Shown piece after piece: positions 52,360 through 60,641 of a stretch of DNA of 64,000 nucleotides. How positions within the stretch are numbered: position 1 is the stretch's first letter; the number at the start of each line of letters is the position of its first letter. Below the pieces are notes generated by a model that ran no database searches, was not told where the DNA came from, and was given only the letters and a program-made list of their open reading frames with translations. Source of the DNA: Bacteroidia bacterium (GTDB lineage: Bacteria; Bacteroidota; Bacteroidia; NS11-12g; UBA9320); the NCBI GenBank assembly GCA_965216465.1, contig CBDCFW010000003.1:96001-160000 (forward strand), written 5' to 3'. A program made the position numbers and the translations under genes.

Positions 52360-52444
52360 GAGATCTTAGGAAAGTGCAATATAATAATCCCATTCTTATA
52401 TAGCCTGAGTAGAATTGGGATTGGCTTCAGTTTTCCATCGTTGT

Positions 52445-52729
52445 ACCTGCTGAAAAAGTAAAGCTCCTATTAGTCTGCGACTGACCGCTTTTTTATATGA
52501 ATTCTAATTGAAAACGGATTACTTTCAGTGATCCGTCCTTATCCGTGTTGAAAAAGCAAAGCTCCTTCAGTCTGCGACTGTTCGCTTTTTTTTAGGTGTA
52601 TTCTAATTGAAAACGGATTACTTTCAGTGATCCATCCTTATCCGTGTTGAAAAAGCAAAGCTCCTTCAGTCTGCGACTGAATGCCTTTTTCACCCCATCT
52701 TAAACTGAAGCGAGCTTCGTTTAAGATGG
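52445..52729 (-). repeat. tRNA-Arg-linked element: CTCG-loop hairpin plus ~2.3 tandem 98-99-bp repeats
   Basis: TGAAAAAG unit markers at 52451, 52549, 52648; hairpin at 52695-52729. Confidence 0.9.
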
Positions 52730-52731
52730 CA

Positions 52732-52767
52732 TAAAAAAAAGCTCTTCCAATACTTGGAAGAGCTTTT
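52732..52767 (-). terminator. Terminator of tRNA-Arg
   Basis: Perfect inverted repeat AAAAGCTCTTCCAA-tac-TTGGAAGAGCTTTT with T-run on the minus strand. Confidence 0.85.
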
Positions 52768-52778
52768 ACTTTTATTCG

Positions 52779-52852
52779 TGACCTCGTCAGGATTCAAACC
52801 TGAGACCTCTTGAGCCGTAATCAAGTGCTCTATTCAGCTGAGCTACGAGGCC
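52779..52852 (-). tRNA. tRNA-Arg(ACG)
   Basis: GGCCTCG/CGAGGTC acceptor, anticodon arm CTTGA-TTACGGC-TCAAG, T-loop GGTTTGAATCC; TATATTTG promoter at 52863-52870. Confidence 0.96.
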
Positions 52853-52979
52853 AATGTGGGTGCAAATATAATATCACTTAGTGGATTAGAAATATAAAAT
52901 TTAAGAGATTTTGAAATGCGAATCGAACAGGGTTTCAGACCTATCTCGTATATTCGAAATCCATTTAAAGTTTTAACCA

Positions 52980-53501
52980 TTGGAGAACTCAGAAGTAAAT
53001 AAAAATCCAGCTTTTCTTGAAGAAGTATACGAGCTAACTGCTGGATTAGAAATGTTTGAAGCCCTACAACAAGGTTTAACAGACATCGATAACACCGACC
53101 TAAATCAGTTGAATAGAATAGGTCTGCGAACCTATCAAGAAGGCAAATGGACCATCAATACCATTTTTCAGCACCTTATCGATTGGGAACGCATCTGGTG
53201 TTTTCGGGCTATTCTTTTTGCACGCAAAGAAGGAACTGTTCCGGTTGCTCATGAACAAGAAATTATGGGTGCTAATTCAAATGCCAATGAACTGCCAATA
53301 GAGCAGTTGATTGAAGAGTTTCGCATTGTTCGTCAATCAACCATCATGCAGTTTAAGTCGTTCAACCAGCAGATTCTCGATACAACCTGCGAATTCTTCG
53401 AGTACGAGATGCCACTACGTGCCATTGCGTTGACGATTGCAGCACACCAAATTCATCATTTTAAAGTGATTAAGGAGCGGTATTTGCCGTTGGATAAATG
53501 A
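52980..53501 (+). CDS. DinB/DUF664-like protein
   Basis: YQEGKWTI....QHLID.ERI, AAHQIHH. Confidence 0.85.
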   Translation: MENSEVNKNPAFLEEVYELTAGLEMFEALQQGLTDIDNTDLNQLNRIGLRTYQEGKWTINTIFQHLIDWERIWCFRAILFARKEGTVPVAHEQEIMGANSNANELPIEQLIEEFRIVRQSTIMQFKSFNQQILDTTCEFFEYEMPLRAIALTIAAHQIHHFKVIKERYLPLDK

Positions 53502-53541
53502 CCTATGCCAACAGATGTTATGGTAATTGATTATTATTTTC

Positions 53542-54711
53542 TTACTTTAATCCTGCTTTTGCCAGATTAATGTAGTTATCGATTCTAAATGTTGAAGCGT
53601 CTTGGTCTTTGGCTTTAACAAAGTATTCAAGAGCTTTGTTGTATTCTTTTCTATCTAAATGAAAAATTCCTCGATTTCGTAAGGCATATGAATATTCAGG
53701 TTTTAATTGTAGAGCCTGCTTAATATCTCTTAGTCCGTCGAACTCATTACCCATTTTTAAATTAGCGTACCCTCCGTTGTTATATGCATCAACAAACGAG
53801 TCGTCTAGTTCCAATATTTGATTGAAGTAGGGCAGAGCCTCATTAAATCTTTCTAGTTCGTTCAATGTGAAGCCAATGTTGTTTAAAGCAATCGTATTCT
53901 TAGGTTCTAGTGCCAAAGCTTTATTGTAGTACTCAAGAGCTTCATTATGTTGTTCTAAATGCGAAAGTGGGAGTGCAATTCGCAAAAAGTCATCGACATA
54001 TAGCCTTTTAGTTAGCTTAAACTTGTCGTTTATTTGTCTTGCTTTTGCCCAATCTTTTAAATTGATATAGGAAGAGATAGCCATACGATAGATCTCATCT
54101 CGTTTTACCCCTTTATCAATCATTTTCTTATAAATGACCACGGCATTTTTGAAGTCTTTTTTATTGTAGAATTCTGCAGCTTTTTTGATATCTTTTGAAT
54201 ATCGTTTCAAGTAAAGCAATTTCCTGATTTGATAACCGTCATTATAAACTTCTTTTCCCGAGAATGGGGTAACGGGTTCTTCCTTTGGGCTCAAATTCTC
54301 AAATAAATCTACAATCGCCGCTCCTAAAAATACCGCTAGTGCAAATTTGATGCTCCCATGAATATCAAAGTAAAAAGCGAAATAAAAGCAGATTAGTGCT
54401 ATTATGAACGACATTAGAGGTCCAGCAAAAGTGGCGAATATCTGTTTGTTGATTGAAGTTGAGGCTGAAGGAGCACAAAGTCCTTTTGTCCAATAAATGG
54501 GATTGGCTCTAAACCAAATGTTAAGCAAACCAAGACGAAGCTTAAAGCTATTGTCTGGATCTCCGTATGAACCCAGATAAATTGTAACATTCTTTCTCGT
54601 TACAAGTATCCATGATAAAGCATGTCCAAGCTCATGGAGCAATACTGTGATAGGTCTTACTAAATAAAAGACCCCAAATATGTACAATAAGATGTATCCG
54701 AATTCTCCCAC
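53542..54711 (-). CDS. M50-family (site-2-protease-like) membrane metalloprotease fused to TPRs
   Basis: LLHELGHA, AGP, NL.P...NDG; C-terminal TPRs. Confidence 0.8.
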   Translation of the reverse strand: MGEFGYILLYIFGVFYLVRPITVLLHELGHALSWILVTRKNVTIYLGSYGDPDNSFKLRLGLLNIWFRANPIYWTKGLCAPSASTSINKQIFATFAGPLMSFIIALICFYFAFYFDIHGSIKFALAVFLGAAIVDLFENLSPKEEPVTPFSGKEVYNDGYQIRKLLYLKRYSKDIKKAAEFYNKKDFKNAVVIYKKMIDKGVKRDEIYRMAISSYINLKDWAKARQINDKFKLTKRLYVDDFLRIALPLSHLEQHNEALEYYNKALALEPKNTIALNNIGFTLNELERFNEALPYFNQILELDDSFVDAYNNGGYANLKMGNEFDGLRDIKQALQLKPEYSYALRNRGIFHLDRKEYNKALEYFVKAKDQDASTFRIDNYINLAKAGLK

Positions 54712-54720
54712 CTAATTGCT

Positions 54721-55380
54721 TCAAATTTCGATTTTTTCTCCTTTAAACTTCGGTTGCTTGTTGAATATTAAATCTAGCATGACCTTAACACGGGCAAGCT
54801 TCTCTCTTAAGTTCGTTTTAAATCCATAAAAGGCACTTTCTTGTTTTGCGTTGTACCCAACGGCGTTTATTCCCTTGCGATTTGCGATAAACACTGCACG
54901 TTCATTGTGAAACTTTTGAGAGATTACCGTAATTGATTTTTGTCCAAAAATCAACTTGCTGCGTACTACAGAATCGAGCGTTCTAAACCCAGCGTAGTCA
55001 AGTACAATTTTAGCTTCGGGAATGCCCCTTTTTAACAAGTCGTCTCGCATGGTTTCAGGCTCGTTATATTCTTTTCTGCTGTTGTCTCCGCTTATCAAAA
55101 TATAATCAATCTTTCCAGTCTTAAATAACTCAACCGCGGCATCAATTCGATATTTATAATACAAGTTCAAACGGCCATTAGATAAATACTTGGTTGTTCC
55201 TAGAAGCAAGCCTGTTTTGTTATGTGGAAGATCAACTGTAGTGTTATACATCTTTGTTTTGGTTTCTGACTTTACCATTGCATCCGAGATGAGAATGCTT
55301 ATTATGCATAACAATAAAAAGCTAAACATGTATTTACTTCTTTTTCGCTTGAAAATTCGATTTATATTGAGTTTTTTCAT
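54721..55380 (-). CDS. sanA: SanA/ElyC (DUF218) family protein
   Basis: GLLLGT, YYKYRIDAA, SGDN...YNEP, DYAGFRTLDSVVR, SQKFHNERA. Confidence 0.88.
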   Translation of the reverse strand: MKKLNINRIFKRKRSKYMFSFLLLCIISILISDAMVKSETKTKMYNTTVDLPHNKTGLLLGTTKYLSNGRLNLYYKYRIDAAVELFKTGKIDYILISGDNSRKEYNEPETMRDDLLKRGIPEAKIVLDYAGFRTLDSVVRSKLIFGQKSITVISQKFHNERAVFIANRKGINAVGYNAKQESAFYGFKTNLREKLARVKVMLDLIFNKQPKFKGEKIEI

Positions 55381-55505
55381 ATTTCAAGAGTCGCTTTTGC
55401 GATATTACGTTAATATTTTCATTCGAACGTTTGCAAGACAAAATAATCGATCGTTTTGCTTTCTCGCAGGATTAAGTTGAGATATTTTATATTCGTAAGT
55501 CTATT

Positions 55506-56399
55506 TTGAAACTACTGAAATTCGCTTCTATAGATGTGGGGTCTAATGCGGTTAGATTGCTGTTTACCAATGTGTTTGAAACACCAAACGGTCCCGTATT
55601 TAGAAAGCTTTCCCTTGTTCGAGTACCCATTCGATTGGGTGAAGATGCCTTTGTTCATGGACGTATTCGTGAAGAGAAGGCCGACCAATTGGTTCGTACC
55701 ATGCGTTCGTTTAAGCACCTGATGAATGTGCATCAAGTGTTAGACTATCGTGCCTATGCAACGAGTGCCATGCGTGAAGCTGAGAACAGCGAAGAGTTGT
55801 TAAAGTCGATTAAGGTCTTTGCCGACATCGATCTTCAAATTGTGTCAGGAGACTTGGAAGCAGAAACCATTTCAACCGAAAAAATTCCATCGCCTTTGCC
55901 ACAGTTTCCAAATGCGGTGTTTATTGACGTAGGAGGGGGGAGTACTGAAATGACCTACCTCAAAGACCATAAGAAATACGATTCAATATCTCTAAAAATT
56001 GGAACCATTCGATTGCTTCACGATACGGTTAAACCAGAACTCTGGGATGAATTCATTGAATGGTTTGATAAGCACGATCTCAAGAATTCTCATACGCCGA
56101 TCATTGGAACTGGAGGTAACATCAACAAACTGTTAAAAGTTTTGCGTGACAATCAAAACGACTACTTCATTAGAACCGAAGCCCTGAGTGATTTCAAAAA
56201 GAAGCTTGACGATGTTGATGTCGACGAAAGAATGGTTAAATTCATTCTGAATCCAGATCGTGCAGATGTAATCGTACCGGCTTCGAAGATTTTTTTAAGT
56301 GCAGCCACTCACATGGACTCTAGAGAAATTTACATCCCCAAAGTTGGACTATCAGACGGTATTGCTCGTCAGTTGTACAAGCAACATAAAAGTAAATAA
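55506..56399 (+). CDS. ppx: Exopolyphosphatase, Ppx/GppA family (short form)
   Basis: IDVGSNAVRL, ATSAMREA.N, DVGGGSTE, GTGGN, RADVI. Confidence 0.92.
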   Translation: MKLLKFASIDVGSNAVRLLFTNVFETPNGPVFRKLSLVRVPIRLGEDAFVHGRIREEKADQLVRTMRSFKHLMNVHQVLDYRAYATSAMREAENSEELLKSIKVFADIDLQIVSGDLEAETISTEKIPSPLPQFPNAVFIDVGGGSTEMTYLKDHKKYDSISLKIGTIRLLHDTVKPELWDEFIEWFDKHDLKNSHTPIIGTGGNINKLLKVLRDNQNDYFIRTEALSDFKKKLDDVDVDERMVKFILNPDRADVIVPASKIFLSAATHMDSREIYIPKVGLSDGIARQLYKQHKSK

Positions 56400-59300
56400 T
56401 TACTCTGCTTCCTCTTCTATTATTGGATCAAGATTTTCGTACTTCTCAATTGCTTTCAATTTCTCATTACACTCGTCAATGATTCCATCGGTGTAGTTCG
56501 TATAATTGTCAATAATACTTTGCAATGTCGCTTTGGCTTGGAAGTAATCTTCTTCCTTAACATAAATGTCACTTAGTAATACAAATCCTTTTACAACCCA
56601 GTATTCGTATGCTGAGAAGTCATCATTTAGTCGATATACGTCGTTACGAGCACTGTCAAGGTCGTCTTGGCTGTACAGTATAAACGCCCTGTGGTAAAGT
56701 GCTTCTGCAGTTTGAGCATTTCTACTCTCCTTAATTACATAATCGAAATGGAATTTTGCAGATCGTAAGTTACTACCTTGAAGTTGAATTCGTCCTAAGG
56801 TCATGTTGGCCTCAACCAAGTTTTCTTTAGGCACATTCTCGATAGGAAGTATTTCAATTGCCTTTTTCTTAGATCGTTCTAAGTTTCCAAGAACATAGTG
56901 ACAACGCATCTGTCCTAAGAGTGCTTTTAAATAATTAGTCTTAGTCGATGCAACAGGTTCTAGAGCTTGATAGTGTTCAAGGGCTTTAGCATGATTCTCG
57001 CGTCCGTAATAGGTAGACGATAGTTTAAGCAACGATTTCTCAGTGTATTCGTTATTGCTTTGACTTACAACGAACTGGTAATGTTTTAGTGCTTCATCTT
57101 CACGGTCGTTATAATAGTCGCATTCAGCCTTGAAATAATTAACCGGTACAATAAAGTATCCGTCATTACCAAACTTATTGATGTAGCTTTTAAACGTAGT
57201 GGTGGCACCAATGCAGTCTCCAGCACGGTAGCGGGTCATAGCACTTTCATAGATTGCACTATCTTGGTACGATACACTGACATCTGCTCCAGGTACATTT
57301 TTAACGTAATCAAAGTAGTCTTCCGGACGGCCTTGGTCGGTATAGATGATTTCGATAAACGATAATGCCTCTTTTGATGCTGTAGTCTTCGGAAAGCGCT
57401 CAACAACCGTTTTATAGTGCCTTAGTGCTATTTCGTCTTTATTCTGATTGTAGTTAATCAAACCCAGTTTGAGGTAGCTATCTGGTAAAAATTGTGATTT
57501 GTCGTACTGAGAAATAATCATACTGAAGATGTTTTCTGCCATGCTATAATTCTCAATTGCCATATACTCTCGAGCAATTTGGAAGAGTGCATCATCACGG
57601 TAAACACTCTTTGGGAAATCCTTTTGGATTAATTTCAGCGTATTAATCTTTTCGGAGTGTCTTTCTTGCAAACCATATAGCATTCCTTTTTGAAAGATGC
57701 TATAATCTGAGTTTTTATAATTCTTCTTGATAATGAAGTCGTACTCTTTTATTGCCTCATTATACATTCCTGTTAAGAAGTAACAATCGGCTAAACGTTG
57801 CGTGTTATTTAAATAGATGTCTCTATTCTCTGCAGAATATTTTTCATTCTTACTGTACTTAGCAAAGTAGTTTTGAGCACGAGCATAGTCTTTCTTCTTG
57901 AAGTAATTAAAACCCATCGAGTAATATCCATAGTTACGATTTTTTGTATCGCTTGAACTGGCATTACTAATAAAGCGATTCATGAGGTTGATGCTTTCAT
58001 CGTAGTCATTAACTTTAAAAGCAATCTCTGCCCTCCAGAAATAGGCCAAAGCTTCCAGCTTCTTGTCTTTCGGATATTTTAAAGACTTGTTAAAGAACAC
58101 ATTCGCATCTTGATATTGTTTATTCAAATACAGCTCTTCACCCCTGTGGAAGGTTAATTCTTGATAAGCAAGTTTCGTAGCGTTGTTGAGTTGGTCAATA
58201 TCTTCAAGTACTTCTATTGCGGCCTTATAGTTCTTTGTACTTAAGAATATATCAGCCATCATTGATTTAGCTTCGTCTTCGTACTCAGAATTTGGATAGT
58301 CAGACAAGAATTGCTTGATTGACTTAATGGCAACTGAATTTTTTTCAAGTTCTGCTGCAAGCTTTGCATAGTTAAAAGCAGAAACCTCAGTTATGTGCTT
58401 ATCAAAGTTCTTGCGCTTAGCCTCTGCAAATGCATTTAAAGCTCGTTCTTTTTTATCGTTTTGAACATCAGATACCCCTAAATGATAATTTGCAGCCTGA
58501 CCAATCTCGTTATCGAGGTTTGACACCATCAGAAAGTACTCGGTTGATTTTTCGTATTGCCCTGCATCGAAATATGCACTAGCAAACTGATAAATTTCAT
58601 CTGGACTTAGATCAGCTACGTCTCCTTCATACTTTTTAAAATGGGTGAGGGCTATGCTCTTATTACCCAATTGAAACTGAATTTTACCTTTTAGCAATTC
58701 AATTTCATTGGTTCTTTTTTCAATTTTTAAATCGCGGATAATTTCGAACGCTTTTTCATACTCCTCTTTTTCATAGTAGATCTGAGAAATATAAAGCTTC
58801 ATGGTACGTGGACCTTTATTTCCAATCTTTTCAAAAGTGGCAAGAGCACAGGTGTAATCTTTTAGAATATAACACTGGTAGCCGTAGTAATAGTTTGCTT
58901 CTACAGCGTACTTGCCATTGCCATTCATGATTTTGCGAAACTCATTTTTAGCCTTAGCATACTCTTCATTTTTGAAGTAACTGTATCCCTTTTTAAATGT
59001 AAGTTCTTCCCGCTGGGCCTTCGATATATCCGTTTCGTTAATATCGTCTAAATACTTAAGTGCTCGGCTGTATTTGCCTTTGTTGAAGTAGTATAATCCC
59101 AGCTCATAGTGAATTTCAGTGTTTAGTTTGTGCTCAGGTTCACTTTTAACAAATCGGGCAAGATCTCGAGAGGCATTGGCTTTATCGAGTTTTAATCTGC
59201 TAAGCCCAATATATGCTTTGGCTTCGTAAGTGAAGTTTGGACCAGGATTGGTTTTTAAAAACTTGTTGAACTCCTTCATGGCGGGTACATATTGCTTTTT

Positions 59301-59432
59301 AACATACAACATTTTAGCATGTTCAAACAAGGTGGCATGATCGGTATACTCTTTCGTACGCTGGGCTTGAGCACTAAACAAGCCGGCGAACATCAAGCTG
59401 AAAACAAGCGATAACTTTAAAATTTTGTTCAT
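56400..59432 (-). CDS. Large secreted TPR-repeat protein
   Basis: Signal peptide, >15 TPR-like repeats over 1010 aa. Confidence 0.88.
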   Translation of the reverse strand: MNKILKLSLVFSLMFAGLFSAQAQRTKEYTDHATLFEHAKMLYVKKQYVPAMKEFNKFLKTNPGPNFTYEAKAYIGLSRLKLDKANASRDLARFVKSEPEHKLNTEIHYELGLYYFNKGKYSRALKYLDDINETDISKAQREELTFKKGYSYFKNEEYAKAKNEFRKIMNGNGKYAVEANYYYGYQCYILKDYTCALATFEKIGNKGPRTMKLYISQIYYEKEEYEKAFEIIRDLKIEKRTNEIELLKGKIQFQLGNKSIALTHFKKYEGDVADLSPDEIYQFASAYFDAGQYEKSTEYFLMVSNLDNEIGQAANYHLGVSDVQNDKKERALNAFAEAKRKNFDKHITEVSAFNYAKLAAELEKNSVAIKSIKQFLSDYPNSEYEDEAKSMMADIFLSTKNYKAAIEVLEDIDQLNNATKLAYQELTFHRGEELYLNKQYQDANVFFNKSLKYPKDKKLEALAYFWRAEIAFKVNDYDESINLMNRFISNASSSDTKNRNYGYYSMGFNYFKKKDYARAQNYFAKYSKNEKYSAENRDIYLNNTQRLADCYFLTGMYNEAIKEYDFIIKKNYKNSDYSIFQKGMLYGLQERHSEKINTLKLIQKDFPKSVYRDDALFQIAREYMAIENYSMAENIFSMIISQYDKSQFLPDSYLKLGLINYNQNKDEIALRHYKTVVERFPKTTASKEALSFIEIIYTDQGRPEDYFDYVKNVPGADVSVSYQDSAIYESAMTRYRAGDCIGATTTFKSYINKFGNDGYFIVPVNYFKAECDYYNDREDEALKHYQFVVSQSNNEYTEKSLLKLSSTYYGRENHAKALEHYQALEPVASTKTNYLKALLGQMRCHYVLGNLERSKKKAIEILPIENVPKENLVEANMTLGRIQLQGSNLRSAKFHFDYVIKESRNAQTAEALYHRAFILYSQDDLDSARNDVYRLNDDFSAYEYWVVKGFVLLSDIYVKEEDYFQAKATLQSIIDNYTNYTDGIIDECNEKLKAIEKYENLDPIIEEEAE

Positions 59433-59583
59433 AGAAATGAAATACCTTTCAAAATAACTGCTTATTGATGGGGAATAGTATTCATTTTGCCCACATTTAA
59501 TTCAGTATTTACTTGTAAGATTCACGATAAATTGAATTAGATAAATATTATATAAATTTTCTTCTCCATTTTTATTCTCTAAT

Positions 59584-59591
59584 TATATTTG
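59584..59591 (+). promoter_or_regulatory. -7 promoter element for tRNA-His
   Basis: TATATTTG followed by CAGCC. Confidence 0.65.
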
Positions 59592-59662
59592 CAGCCGCTT
59601 AAAGTTAACAGGAATTCATTTGTTGAAGATTTGTAGCTTTAGGCCCTGTATTTATTACAAAT

Positions 59663-59737
59663 GGTGGTTGTAGCTCAGTTGGTTAGAGCACTGGTTTGTG
59701 GTTCCAGGGGTCGTGGGTTCGAATCCCATCTTCCACC
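59663..59737 (+). tRNA. tRNA-His(GTG) with encoded G-1
   Basis: G-GTGGTTG..TAGCTCAGTTGGTTAGAGC, anticodon loop TTGTGGT, GGTTCGAATCC, C73. Confidence 0.93.
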
Positions 59738-59742
59738 CAAAG

Positions 59743-59774
59743 AAAAAGGTCTCGCGGTAGCGAGGCCTTTTTTT
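59743..59774 (+). terminator. Terminator of tRNA-His
   Basis: AAAAAGGTCTCGC-GGTA-GCGAGGCCTTTTTTT. Confidence 0.85.
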
Positions 59775-59780
59775 ATTCAA

Positions 59781-60058
59781 CCATTTTCTGCAAGCTCGCT
59801 TGCAAGAAAATGGGGAATAAAAAAATAAGCCTTGTAAAGGCTCCTTTTTCTTTGAAGGCCCAACAGAAGATATAGGGATAAACGCAGTTAATCCTTCTTT
59901 CGCAGTTCAATTAAATTGGGAAGGGTTGCCTTGTAAAGGCTCCTTTTTCTTTGAAGGCCCAACAGAAGATATAGGGATCAACGCAGTTAATCCTTCTTTG
60001 GTAGTTCAATTAAATTGGGAAGGGTTGCCTTGTAAAGGCTCCTTTTTCTTTTGCAGGT
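59781..60058 (+). repeat. tRNA-His-linked element: CTCG-loop hairpin plus ~2.3 tandem 99-bp repeats
   Basis: GCCTTGTAAAGGCTCC at 59829, 59928, 60027; hairpin at 59781-59813. Confidence 0.9.
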
Positions 60059-60188
60059 TGAATAGATGAAATCGTGTGCTTAGTAAATGTTAGTCGTTTA
60101 ATTTACGCTTAGCAGCTTTTGTTTTTTTAACCCATTCAAAACTAATTGAGGATATAATCGACAGATTCATTTACTTTGAAGCACTATT

Positions 60189-60641
60189 ATGAACGAATTG
60201 AAATTAGTGCTATTATTTTTCGCAGCAAGCTTTATGATTGCATGCGGATCAGGCGATAAATCAGAGTCGAATGAAGAAACAACAGTAGAACCTGAAGTTG
60301 AAGAAGTTTCAGGCAGTGTTTCTTTTGGAAATATTCAAGATGGTGATACGCTAACATCGCCTTTTCTAATGGAAATGTATGTAGAAGGAATGACCGTTGA
60401 ACCTAAAGGCGAACCTCGCGAAGGATATGGCCACCATCACTTACTCATAAATGATGGGTTTATTGATGAAGGCATTGTCATTATAGCGGATTCAACTCAC
60501 ATTCATTATGGTGGTGGACAAACATCAGATTCAGTAGCACTTGCTCCGGGCAATTATCAGTTAACACTGCAGTTTGCGGACGGTATGCACGTGTCATACG
60601 GCGAAAATTGGTCTGCATCGATTGATGTCGTTGTAGAGTAG
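60189..60641 (+). CDS. DUF4399-family lipoprotein
   Basis: Lipobox MIAC, GHHHLLI, HYGGGQT, L.PG.Y.LTLQFADG.H. Confidence 0.85.
   Translation: MNELKLVLLFFAASFMIACGSGDKSESNEETTVEPEVEEVSGSVSFGNIQDGDTLTSPFLMEMYVEGMTVEPKGEPREGYGHHHLLINDGFIDEGIVIIADSTHIHYGGGQTSDSVALAPGNYQLTLQFADGMHVSYGENWSASIDVVVE

Follow-up and report, generated by a model that had tools for sequence, protein, structure and literature searches.

Hairpin-rich, gene-less elements behind tRNA genes of Bacteroidia: two copies at tRNA-Arg and tRNA-His as probable members of a class-wide inserted family

The window, a stretch of 64,000 nucleotides from a Bacteroidia bacterium, contains two tRNA genes that are each followed by a hairpin and a tandem array. 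The tRNA-Arg(acg) gene (52778..52852, minus strand; ARAGORN, Rfam tRNA 59.8 bits) lies upstream of the first element. Its trailer (52777..52764), terminator hairpin (52763..52741) and T-run (52740..52731), recognised from the sequence and spanning 52731..52777 of the minus strand, lead into a long hairpin, H1 (52693..52730, minus strand), with the loop core AAGCTCGCTT and a bulged A. When H1 is folded, its stem is lengthened by pairing of the T-run with the A-run. Three units follow on the same strand. Unit 1 (52597..52690) consists of the A-run with a small hairpin, H2 (CAGTC-GCA-GACTG, 52690..52667), a reverse complement of the trailer (52664..52648), the hairpin H3 (CGGAT..GGATCACTGAAAGTAATCCG, 52644..52614) and a linker that is a decayed H1 3' arm (52613..52597). 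Unit 2 (52498..52593; TRF) has the same parts. Unit 3 (52418..52494) comprises an A-run with H2 (52494..52471), a trailer complement (52467..52451), the word GCAGGT (52450..52445) and a diverged H3 (52444..52418) finishing in AATCC (52422..52418), after which the tRNA tail is absent.

The second element lies on the plus strand behind the tRNA-His(gtg) gene (59664..59738; ARAGORN, Rfam). Trailer (59739-59747), terminator hairpin (59748-59767) and T-run (59768-59777) are succeeded by H1 with the same loop core (59778-59815) and an A-run (59816-59828). Unit 1 (59829..59927) is composed of H2 (GCCTT-GTA-AAGGC, 59829-59841), a trailer complement (59842-59853), H3 (AGGGATAAACGCAGTTAATCCT, 59874-59895) and a linker (59896-59927); unit 2 (59928..60026) repeats these parts, and a partial unit 3 (60027..60058) retains H2 (60027-60039), the trailer complement (60040-60051) and GCAGGT (60053-60058). 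A second terminator-like hairpin with a T-run, read from the sequence (60078..60128, plus strand), separates this element from a DUF4399 gene (60189-60641; Pfam).

The layout of terminator, H1 and 99-bp tandem units is common to both window copies. TRF reports a period of 99 in each case, with 2.6 copies and 87% matches for the Arg array (52426-52680) and 2.3 copies and 97% matches for the His array (59829-60051). Both are plain tandem amplifications, the boundaries of which vary by locus. The words GGAT(C/A)A-N7-TAATCC and TTCAATTA are shared, and BLASTN finds no link between the copies. The first-pass annotation had described the same architecture behind two tRNA genes: a terminator followed by a long hairpin with one bulged A on the 3' arm, then tandem repeats of a common period with shared words. 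This description holds at both loci. Its coordinates are those of the elements and not of the tRNA genes (Arg 52852..52778, His 59664..59738). GCAGGT, regarded as a common end, does occur in both copies but is not terminal in the Arg copy, where the diverged third H3 continues; the sharing of this 6-mer could be due to chance.

That the elements form a family tied to tRNA genes is directly observed. The same layout is present at eight tRNA loci of the window's own genome, with up to 5.9 tandem copies, and each of the eight directly follows a tRNA gene of the same orientation. The word AAGCTCGCTT occurs 15 times in this genome, eight of these about 50 nt behind tRNAs at six loci, and variants at tRNA-Val and tRNA-Asn bring the number of loci to eight. 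Model R1 yields 32 matches at E<=1, those at E<0.01 being confined to the eight tRNA loci. Model R2, a covariance model built from 22 sequences of other genomes only, recovers all eight loci (Arg copy 5.6e-7, His copy 1.9e-8) and gives no own-genome match outside them at E<0.01. The scan of the genome and its relatives proposed in the first-pass annotation thus returned further copies, and every own-genome match below E 0.01 lies at a tRNA. At E<=1e-3, matches were found in 68 of the 151 order genomes, and at E<=1e-4 in 22 of the 151 class genomes. One ordered architecture is shared by 20 of 25 genera in the order and by about 13 families in the class. Of the 41 best loci that were fetched, 37 (25 of 29 and 12 of 12 in the two sets) lie directly behind a tRNA or tmRNA gene of the same orientation. 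The host gene is a tmRNA at locus L150, and several elements are stacked at one tRNA at L143, L153 and L163. None of 43 pattern-scan matches on viral contigs fits the model.

Tail repeats are seen directly at a minority of loci. At seven of 24 (L139, L140, L141, L143, L153, L164 and L166), 12-18 nt identical to the tRNA tail are found at the AATCC of the final unit (18 nt in L141; 17 nt in L140, L143 and L164), with a second trailer and terminator behind them. A tail repeat is likewise found at L203, L210 and L214. Under uniform scoring, at least 9 of 11 identities are reached in eight of 41 loci (control mean 4.4); the remaining 33, among them all eight own-genome copies, are without the repeat. 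The own-genome copies show 3-6 of 11 identities against a control of 4.4, and the window Arg and His copies show 3 of 11 after AATCC against 4.1-4.4. In the window copies the tail repeat is gone, apparently lost by decay, and insertion is indicated by empty sites alone. AATCC is intrinsic to the element; Met tRNAs have AGTCC, but their units retain AATCC (L203, L162, L151).

Filled and empty sites with precise borders are observed directly as well. At tRNA-Pro(ggg) in genus g2, three genomes (G025, G157, G097) carry a 144-bp insert with an 18-bp repeat, and five (G159, G061, G142, G099, G156) are exactly empty. At tRNA-Arg(acg) in the own genus, the unit is present in G011 (with tail repeat), G014 and G015, and a plain terminator is found in G023, G005, G004 and G013. 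The tRNA-His element is absent from all nine congeners whose His flank was read; there, tRNA-His lies 17-19 nt from the ATG of the DUF4399 gene, or one plain terminator lies between them. Element-free orthologous loci, the check suggested in the first-pass annotation, therefore exist. Because of the tail repeats and precise empty sites, the units are regarded as ORF-less inserts of about 130-150 bp that were later amplified internally. Where both tail copies are kept (G025, G011, L143, L164, L210), the trailer and terminator after the first are unrelated to those after the second, and empty sites possess only the second pair, so that the insert is foreign to the locus. Empty sites could alternatively have arisen by deletion between the repeats, and no excised form of the element was seen. 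Family members show bounding tRNA 3' repeats together with empty sites in relatives, as do tRNA-integrating elements and CIMEs. The window features probably belong to a family of hairpin-rich elements without ORFs that are inserted at tRNA/tmRNA 3' ends across the Bacteroidia. The earlier suggestion of a tRNA-targeted, non-autonomous family agrees with the eight own-genome loci, the spread through order and class, the adjacency to tRNA and tmRNA genes and the empty orthologous sites.

Covariation of the stems is likewise a direct observation. Among 22 relatives in an unfitted alignment, 91.1% of stem cells pair compared with 66% in shuffles, and both sides have changed in 63 cells compared with 18.2. 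Neither value is reached in any of 500 shuffles, and slid controls give 24-39%. H1 is Watson-Crick paired in 750 of 856 cells across 40 loci, and a trailer complement of at least 8 nt exists in 28 of 42 loci but in none of 42 shuffles. In RNA under selection, G.U is normally far better tolerated than A.C; in the model-fitted alignment, 45 G.U and 37 A.C occur among 1410 stem cells. This parity argues against selection on a sense RNA and favours DNA-level hairpins. The element body is a near-palindrome of which both strands fold equally well, and its left half contains terminator-like hairpins back to back, one for each strand. The hairpins are intact even where the tail repeat has decayed, which suggests that the structure itself is selected, either for a host function or for continued mobility.

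The unit itself has no ORF, and no integrase adjoins the window copies. The own genome encodes four PF00589 proteins, none near the element loci, and G025, in which the element is polymorphic, encodes two, both Xer-sized. Integrases near units at L145 and L210 are parts of other, larger elements; the one at L145 carries Arm-DNA-bind_5. At tRNA-Met, the own genome also harbours an island of 15 kb with a 43-nt repeat. Units are separated by genes at two tRNA loci: the gene at tRNA-Val encodes a protein of 1027 aa that has a T9SS sorting tail, and the one at tRNA-Asn encodes an NYN protein that is found in none of 60 other genomes of the family. A full-length parent element with the unit's arms was not found, the tRNA-Val tail having a single occurrence in G050.

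A complete element is about 130-150 bp long and enters the tRNA gene downstream of the T-loop, before the gene's 3' end. In its left part, a replacement tail for the tRNA is succeeded by the element's own trailer and terminator and by H1 between T-run and A-run; its right part continues with H2, a small hairpin with a GNA loop, then with the exact reverse complement of the element's trailer and a C-rich word. The right end is the 5' half of H3, the 3' half being (T/C)AATCC, and the original tRNA tail and terminator are displaced to behind the element. Insertion may occur by site-specific recombination with a crossover 3' of AATCC, catalysed by a putative recombinase acting in trans, and the hairpins may act as DNA, in a folded single strand or a cruciform. 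The segment from the H1 3' arm through AATCC would then have been amplified in tandem, giving the 99-bp arrays of the window.

The closest parallel in layout is provided by the tRNA-linked repeats (TLRs) of E. coli, first described by Egan and Landy in 1978 and catalogued by Rudd in 1999, as cited in a 2021 paper (PMC8144298). According to that paper, TLRs have no ORF of known function, and a function is still lacking. They lie directly behind tRNA or rRNA genes in 1-5 units per locus, and the last 18-19 nt of each unit, from the T-loop AATCC, repeat the 3' end of the gene ahead of it without a mismatch; rRNA-linked TLRs sit between two terminators, and some TLRs are transcribed and processed and bind Hfq or CsrA in vitro. 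The Bacteroidia units are also directly behind a co-oriented tRNA and few in tandem (2.6 and 2.3 in the window), but the 18-19 bp terminal identity is absent from the window copies and present in eight of 41 family loci. The E. coli unit ends in ...CGAAGCGCGCAGCGCTGAGTAATCC plus tail, with the arrangement of H3 (GA, short stem, GNA loop, GA, G, TAATCC), and in the Rfam RtT model the outer stem GGGGAAGGAU pairs with the tRNA-Tyr tail AUCCUUCCCC, again designed as in H3. The E. coli tyrT units (RtT/rttR, tyrT-tyrV operon), however, are without terminator, H1 palindrome and trailer complement. RF00391 (gathering threshold 45 bits; positive control E. coli tyrT, 133-137 bits) has no match at E<=1 to the window region or to six other own loci (L001-L006); three units of another kind at L207 score 26.3 bits, below gathering. 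The H3 model has no match to the E. coli units at E<=1, and homology is therefore unsupported. An already described tRNA-linked family is accordingly matched in layout but not by the Rfam RtT model. In the part of PMC8144298 consulted TLRs are treated as RNAs, in contrast to the DNA-level reading of the hairpins here, and searches of the TLR literature found no statement of TLRs as insertions with empty sites.

The elements could instead be a functional RNA of this RtT/TLR kind, cotranscribed with the tRNA as in the alternative given by the first-pass annotation, in which H3 and the tRNA-like tail mimic an acceptor/T minihelix. Such a transcript would be processed like a tRNA 3' end and then serve as a putative small RNA or draw off processing enzymes as a decoy. 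The TLR layout with its body between two terminators and the gene-end copy last, the transcription, processing and protein binding in vitro of some TLRs, both as given in PMC8144298, the H3-like outer stem of RtT and the retention of hairpins despite tail-repeat decay fit this possibility. It is nevertheless unlikely, given the G.U/A.C counts, the equal folding of both strands, the strong terminator ahead of the element body, the variable presence of the element among close species and the failure of RF00391 to match the window copies. There is less chance still that large integrative elements (islands, prophages or ICEs) lost their interior and left the units behind as random scars, which were then amplified locally. 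Tail repeats are the classic signature of tRNA-gene integration, larger elements are present at such tRNAs (the L145 integrase, the tRNA-Met island), and the T9SS and NYN genes lie between units. Random deletion, however, would not produce one size and one ordered architecture across so many genera and families, covarying stems would not persist in scars, and a parent with matching arms is missing.

It is very improbable that the arrays are a host terminator or insulator module that forms and grows solely as the tRNA tail and its downstream flank are duplicated in tandem on the spot, with no insertion from outside. Arrays at L166, L203, L207 and E. coli tyrT do repeat the same tail, trailer and terminator in every unit, the window arrays are plain amplifications with locus-specific boundaries, and the back-to-back hairpins of the left half would suit termination on both strands. 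Against this stand the unrelated first and second terminators, the empty sites with only the second, and the tRNA-His element, which has no counterpart in the nine congeners. There is next to no chance that the elements are of REP/BIME type or derive from IS200/IS605 (PATE/MITE) and owe their movement to a Y1 HUH transposase; REP/BIME- or MITE-like was a label offered in the first-pass annotation. Two features speak for such an origin, the imperfect hairpins with their bulged base and the mini-hairpins with GNA loops, the latter typical of stable single-stranded DNA folds, and like REP/BIME sequences and MITEs the units are short, non-coding, hairpin-forming and multi-copy. The RAYT/Y1 transposase domain PF01797 was nevertheless found in none of five carrier genomes, the own genome included, in a search that was positive in 6 of 14 known genomes. 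Copies occur only at tRNA 3' flanks and are not dispersed over the chromosome, and the flanking repeat, where kept, is a 12-18 nt tRNA-tail copy that is foreign to the Y1 mechanism. These three points largely refute a Y1 HUH origin. Unlike MITEs, the units have neither terminal inverted repeats nor a short fixed target duplication: the left end is tRNA tail and trailer, the right end is the H3 5' half, and the inverted repeats (trailer and its complement) are internal.

As inserts at tRNA/tmRNA 3' ends, the units can be compared with two further groups. Sublocations of integration within tRNA/tmRNA genes were reportedly treated by Williams in 2002, and cis-mobilizable elements (CIMEs) are said to have been described by Pavlovic in 2004. 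Islands, prophages and CIMEs share with the units the direct repeat of the tRNA 3' end, the restored gene, stacking, the use of tmRNA and empty sites, but the units are 130-150 bp long, gene-less and without a linked integrase, have one conserved, almost fully self-complementary architecture and occupy very many tRNA species. Integron attC and CTX-phage attP(+) are folded single-strand recombination sites. The units resemble them in the primacy of structure over sequence, in imperfect hairpins with an extra-helical base and in the piling up of small ORF-less units; they differ in their tRNA-gene target and in that no IntI-type integrase is seen, and a single-stranded form is only proposed for them. 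That tRNA-linked repeats, from E. coli TLRs to the Bacteroidia units, are one widespread class of gene-less mobile cassettes is a speculative and rather unlikely extension. Single-stranded DNA would then fold into an almost fully paired junction of trailer stem, terminator hairpin, H1, H2 and H3, and a host-encoded Xer-like or other recombinase would direct it to the T-loop/acceptor segment of tRNA, tmRNA and 5S genes. The units would pile up like integron cassettes, occasionally with a gene; candidate cargo here are the genes for the NYN protein (at tRNA-Asn) and for the T9SS protein (at tRNA-Val).

E. coli tRNA-linked repeats have been known since 1978. The Bacteroidia family adds a structurally distinct counterpart that is common in this class, filled and empty sites with base-precise borders, and stem statistics favouring DNA-level hairpins over a sense-strand RNA. 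It also offers a testable anatomy of replacement tail, own terminator, palindromic body and an H3 placed over the crossover region. Should the units prove mobile, no smaller integrative elements would have been described at tRNA genes, and the units would also be a source of contig breaks and false tRNA calls in MAGs.

Behind both tRNA genes of the window, tRNA-Arg(acg) (52852..52778, minus strand) and tRNA-His(gtg) (59664..59738, plus strand; both by ARAGORN), the same parts follow in the tRNA sense: first a short trailer, then a terminator hairpin, rich in G+C and with a T-run, and after it a long hairpin (H1), an A-run and tandem units. H1 has the loop core AAGCTCGCTT and a single bulged A in its 3' arm in both copies. 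The units repeat with a period of 99, in 2.6 copies at 87% (Arg) and 2.3 copies at 97% (His). The architecture described in the first-pass annotation, a terminator followed by H1 with the bulged A and period-99 units, is thereby borne out, and the words said to be shared by the repeats are present in both copies. GCAGGT, suggested as the common terminus, also occurs in both (Arg, 52450..52445, minus strand; His, 60053-60058, plus strand), but the Arg element continues through a third, diverged hairpin to an AATCC (52422..52418, minus strand). The likeness of the two copies is one of plan, not of sequence, because BLASTN cannot align them; a search of their own genome ties neither to further loci. 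For the window and six other own-genome loci, Rfam at E ≤ 1 returns tRNAs and sub-threshold noise only. Among the sequencing runs listed for the stretch, none is of RNA. In three public DNA runs of a single study, contig breaks fall at the arrays, and one contig lacks precisely one 99-bp repeat of the Arg array (window 52535-52635), either through copy-number variation or through what may be an assembly collapse.

The 3.23-Mb genome (G000) contains the loop core AAGCTCGCTT 15 times. Eight of these occurrences follow a tRNA gene at a distance of about 50 nt and are spread over six loci: Arg-acg, His-gtg, Ser-tga, Ser-gga, Pro-ggg and Pro-tgg, the last at the end of a Ser-Arg-Pro operon. Genome-wide TRF and inspection of all tRNA 3' flanks add two more, one at tRNA-Val(tac) and one, with a single unit, at tRNA-Asn(gtt). 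One order of parts is common to all eight: trailer, terminator hairpin, T-run, H1, A-run, a small hairpin (H2), a G(G/C)CTT word, a C-rich word, and a hairpin (H3) ending in (T/C)AATCC. H2 has a 4-6-bp stem and a GNA or GNNA loop, often as GCGNAGC, and the outer stem of H3, GGA(T)/(A)TCC, encloses CGA-NN-GNA-NN-GAG. The piece repeated in the arrays starts near the loop or the 3' arm of H1 and ends at AATCC; its borders vary by locus, and the arrays are therefore ordinary tandem amplifications. Behind tRNA-Asn(gtt), ARAGORN reports an 85-nt "tRNA-Asn(att)" (contig C4, 7301-7385). The call is spurious: it covers the junction of terminator, H1 and H2 in a second unit, now decayed, and arises from the cloverleaf-like fold of the element.

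A covariance-model scan of the genome and its relatives, a check that the first-pass annotation had proposed, finds copies at eight tRNA loci in the own genome as well as across the order and class. The model R1, hand-built from nine first units, matches the own genome at E<0.01 only at these eight loci. Because the window copies were among its training set, a second model, R2, was built from 22 sequences taken exclusively from other genomes. It recovers 8/8 loci (His, E 1.9e-8; Arg, E 5.6e-7), with no other match below E 0.01. R1 matches are present in 68 of 151 genomes of the order (E ≤ 1e-3), representing 20 of 25 genera, and in 3 of 27 genomes of the own genus, with a sensitivity that is incomplete: the Arg unit of one congener (G015) was missed and later found by eye. 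In the class, 22 of 151 genomes from about 13 families have matches (E ≤ 1e-4). The restriction to tRNA 3' flanks, which the first-pass annotation had proposed to test, holds for all eight own-genome loci, for 24 of the best 29 order-level loci fetched, which have a co-oriented tRNA directly upstream, and for 12/12 class-level loci fetched. One further order-level locus has a co-oriented tmRNA in this position, and of the remaining four, three abut a contig end. Among the tRNAs occupied are Val, Pro, Ser, Arg, Met, Cys, Leu and Glu. Pattern searches are less informative: a strict, nearly blind pattern yields one true match in 40 relatives (G025), and the matches listed for a loose pattern in genome contigs include chance matches in unrelated phyla. 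In viral contigs, 43 matches to a narrow pattern, accompanied by 0 model matches and 0 tRNAs, are chance. No description of such a family in Bacteroidota was found in the largely open-access literature searched.

Some units end in a copy of the tRNA gene's own 3' end, its tail. In G025, which belongs to another family, the tRNA-Pro(ggg) unit terminates in AATCTCGCCATCCCGACC, an exact copy of the last 18 nt of the tRNA, and behind this copy lie a second trailer and terminator, unrelated to the first. Exact tail copies of 12-18 nt occupy the same position in 7/24 order-level loci and in three others (L203, L210 and L214). Under uniform scoring, at least 9/11 tail identities are reached in 8/41 loci (mean of the mismatched-tRNA control, 4.4), and no tail is recognisable after AATCC in 33/41. 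Three loci (L143, L153 and L163) have several different units in series, with the tail at the end of each. Behind the single tRNA of L163 (G135:C146, tRNA-Pro-ggg) stands a stack of no fewer than eight small units, each ending in an identical 17-nt tail. They are of two kinds, one built as H1-H2-H3 and the other of a terminator and a partial pseudo-tRNA with a different anticodon arm. The tail is unrecognisable in 8/8 own-genome copies, including both window copies, while their hairpins have stayed intact. The distal tail may decay fast because it is no longer needed; otherwise, the structure of such tail-less loci is kept for a reason other than insertion.

Empty sites, whose existence the first-pass annotation had raised as a question, are found at three orthologous loci. 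At tRNA-Pro(ggg) in genus g2, a 144-bp insert is present in G025, G157 and G097, while in G159, G061, G142, G099 and G156 the tRNA is joined straight to the trailer and terminator found behind the G025 insert. At tRNA-Arg(acg), congeners in the own genus differ as well: units are present in G011, G014 and G015, the single unit of G011 together with a tail copy and a second terminator, while G023, G005, G004 and G013 show a plain terminator. At tRNA-His, the element is absent from all nine congeners whose His flank was read, and two of them have 17-19 nt between the tRNA and the start codon (ATG) of a DUF4399 gene, the same gene that follows the His element of the window. The units are therefore inserts, or have been precisely lost between repeats. 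Together with the eight own-genome loci and the tRNA adjacency across the order and class, these filled and empty sites support the earlier proposal of tRNA-targeted non-autonomous elements.

The tail repeat could be a target-site duplication. This is less likely, as the repeat always stops at the tRNA end and as Met tRNAs read AGTCC, whereas the units behind them (L203, L162, L151) nonetheless carry AATCC. AATCC is therefore element-borne, and the exchange lies 3' of it. A recombination between an element-borne site and the gene fits this better than a target-site duplication. The 18-nt repeat was also considered as a mark of reverse transcription; its left border is not fixed.

The hairpins themselves are well supported. 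In an unfitted MAFFT alignment of 22 relatives, tested at ten pairs of the H1 top and H2, 91.1% of cells are paired against 66.0% in shuffles, and 63 cells are changed on both sides against 18.2; no shuffle out of 500 gets as far, and pairing in slid controls is 24-39%. From single units aligned with MAFFT, RNAalifold recovers no structure, the hairpins being misaligned. Among 40 one-per-locus first units in a model-fitted alignment, Watson-Crick cells number 750/856 in H1, 171/195 in H2 and 286/359 in H3, with all four pair types at most stem positions. Next to H2, on its 3' side, the element carries its own trailer again as the reverse complement, with an exact run of at least 8 nt in 28/42 loci (0/42 shuffles) and of up to 16 nt (L142, L155), so that the left two thirds of the element amount to a large imperfect palindrome with the H1 loop at its centre. 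G.U and A.C cells are about equal in number (45 vs 37, model-fitted alignment), both strands fold about equally well, and the model also matches the reverse strand. The conservation of the stems is read as probable selection, or templating, at the level of DNA and not of a sense RNA. GNA-loop mini-hairpins can have special stability in DNA, and their presence is consistent with the DNA-level reading.

The REP/MITE label of the first-pass annotation is not supported, as no Y1/RAYT transposase was found in the five carrier genomes searched. Four PF00589 genes are present in the own genome, all away from the eight loci, the neighbours of the window elements are ordinary genes, and G025 has two Xer-sized recombinases only. 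Integrases adjoin units at L145 and L210, but they bring their own arm repeats and lie on the 5' side of the tRNA copy, and thus belong to other, larger elements. A full-length parent element, sought via the tRNA-Val tail in G050, was not found, the tail occurring once. In the own genome, a gene for a 1027-aa protein with a T9SS sorting tail lies between units behind or inside the tRNA-Val array (C6:526102-529185). A gene for an NYN-domain protein, not found in 60 other genomes of the family, follows the tRNA-Asn unit, likewise between units and flanked by short tail-like repeats (C4:7516-8019). These cases show that gene-bearing DNA lands at the same sites, without implying a mechanism shared with the units.

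Outside the window, the genome has other tRNA-linked and repeated features. Seventeen tRNA genes of different specificities, with duplicates elsewhere in the genome, are packed within 1.7 kb (C6:445784-447434) in what looks like a mobile or phage-type tRNA array. Behind tRNA-Met, a 15-kb segment (C6:646599-661760) is bounded by a 43-nt repeat, from anticodon loop to 3' end, and has TCTTGCAAGCC repeats at both ends; no PF00589 match lies inside, hence it is viewed as a classical island whose integrase is unrecognised or lost. tRNA-Leu(caa) and tRNA-Asp (C1:168590-168785 and C6:382973-383162) are followed, respectively, by a 113-nt insert of another kind, with a 16-nt tail copy at its end and then a 428-bp repeat in 2.3 copies, and by a partial tandem copy of the gene's own T-arm, tail and terminator. 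A 147-bp repeat forms two long arrays of 33 and 47 copies (C1:64437-69280 and C5:83786-90684). A 93-bp repeat (3.3 copies, C5:395410-395713) appears to lie upstream of a 16S gene, the rRNA position being presumed from coordinates relative to the tRNAs of the rRNA operon.

The closest likeness is to the tRNA-linked repeats (TLRs) of E. coli. According to PMC8144298, there are 22 TLRs, distributed over ten loci downstream of tRNA or rRNA genes. The final 18-19 bp of each are an exact match to the 3' end of the gene before it, and no function is known for any but three rRNA-linked TLRs, which in vitro bind Hfq and CsrA. In the E. coli tyrT region, the 178-bp units end in ...CGAAGCGCGCAGCGCTGAGTAATCC and the tRNA-Tyr tail. 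The outer stem of the Rfam RtT model (RF00391) pairs with this tail, which is the design of the Bacteroidia H3. In contrast, the tyrT units lack the terminator and the palindromic body of the Bacteroidia elements, and RF00391 has no match in the window or six other own-genome loci; on a second kind of unit, in L207, it scores 26.3 bits only. R3, a model of H3 alone, reaches no E. coli unit, but it is weak, the window His units themselves scoring only E ~0.7. The layout is thus common to both groups, and homology is not implied. The Bacteroidia family is filed as TLR-like elements that carry a palindromic terminator module. For TLRs, no statement of insertion was found in the literature searched; for the Bacteroidia elements, there is now evidence of insertion.
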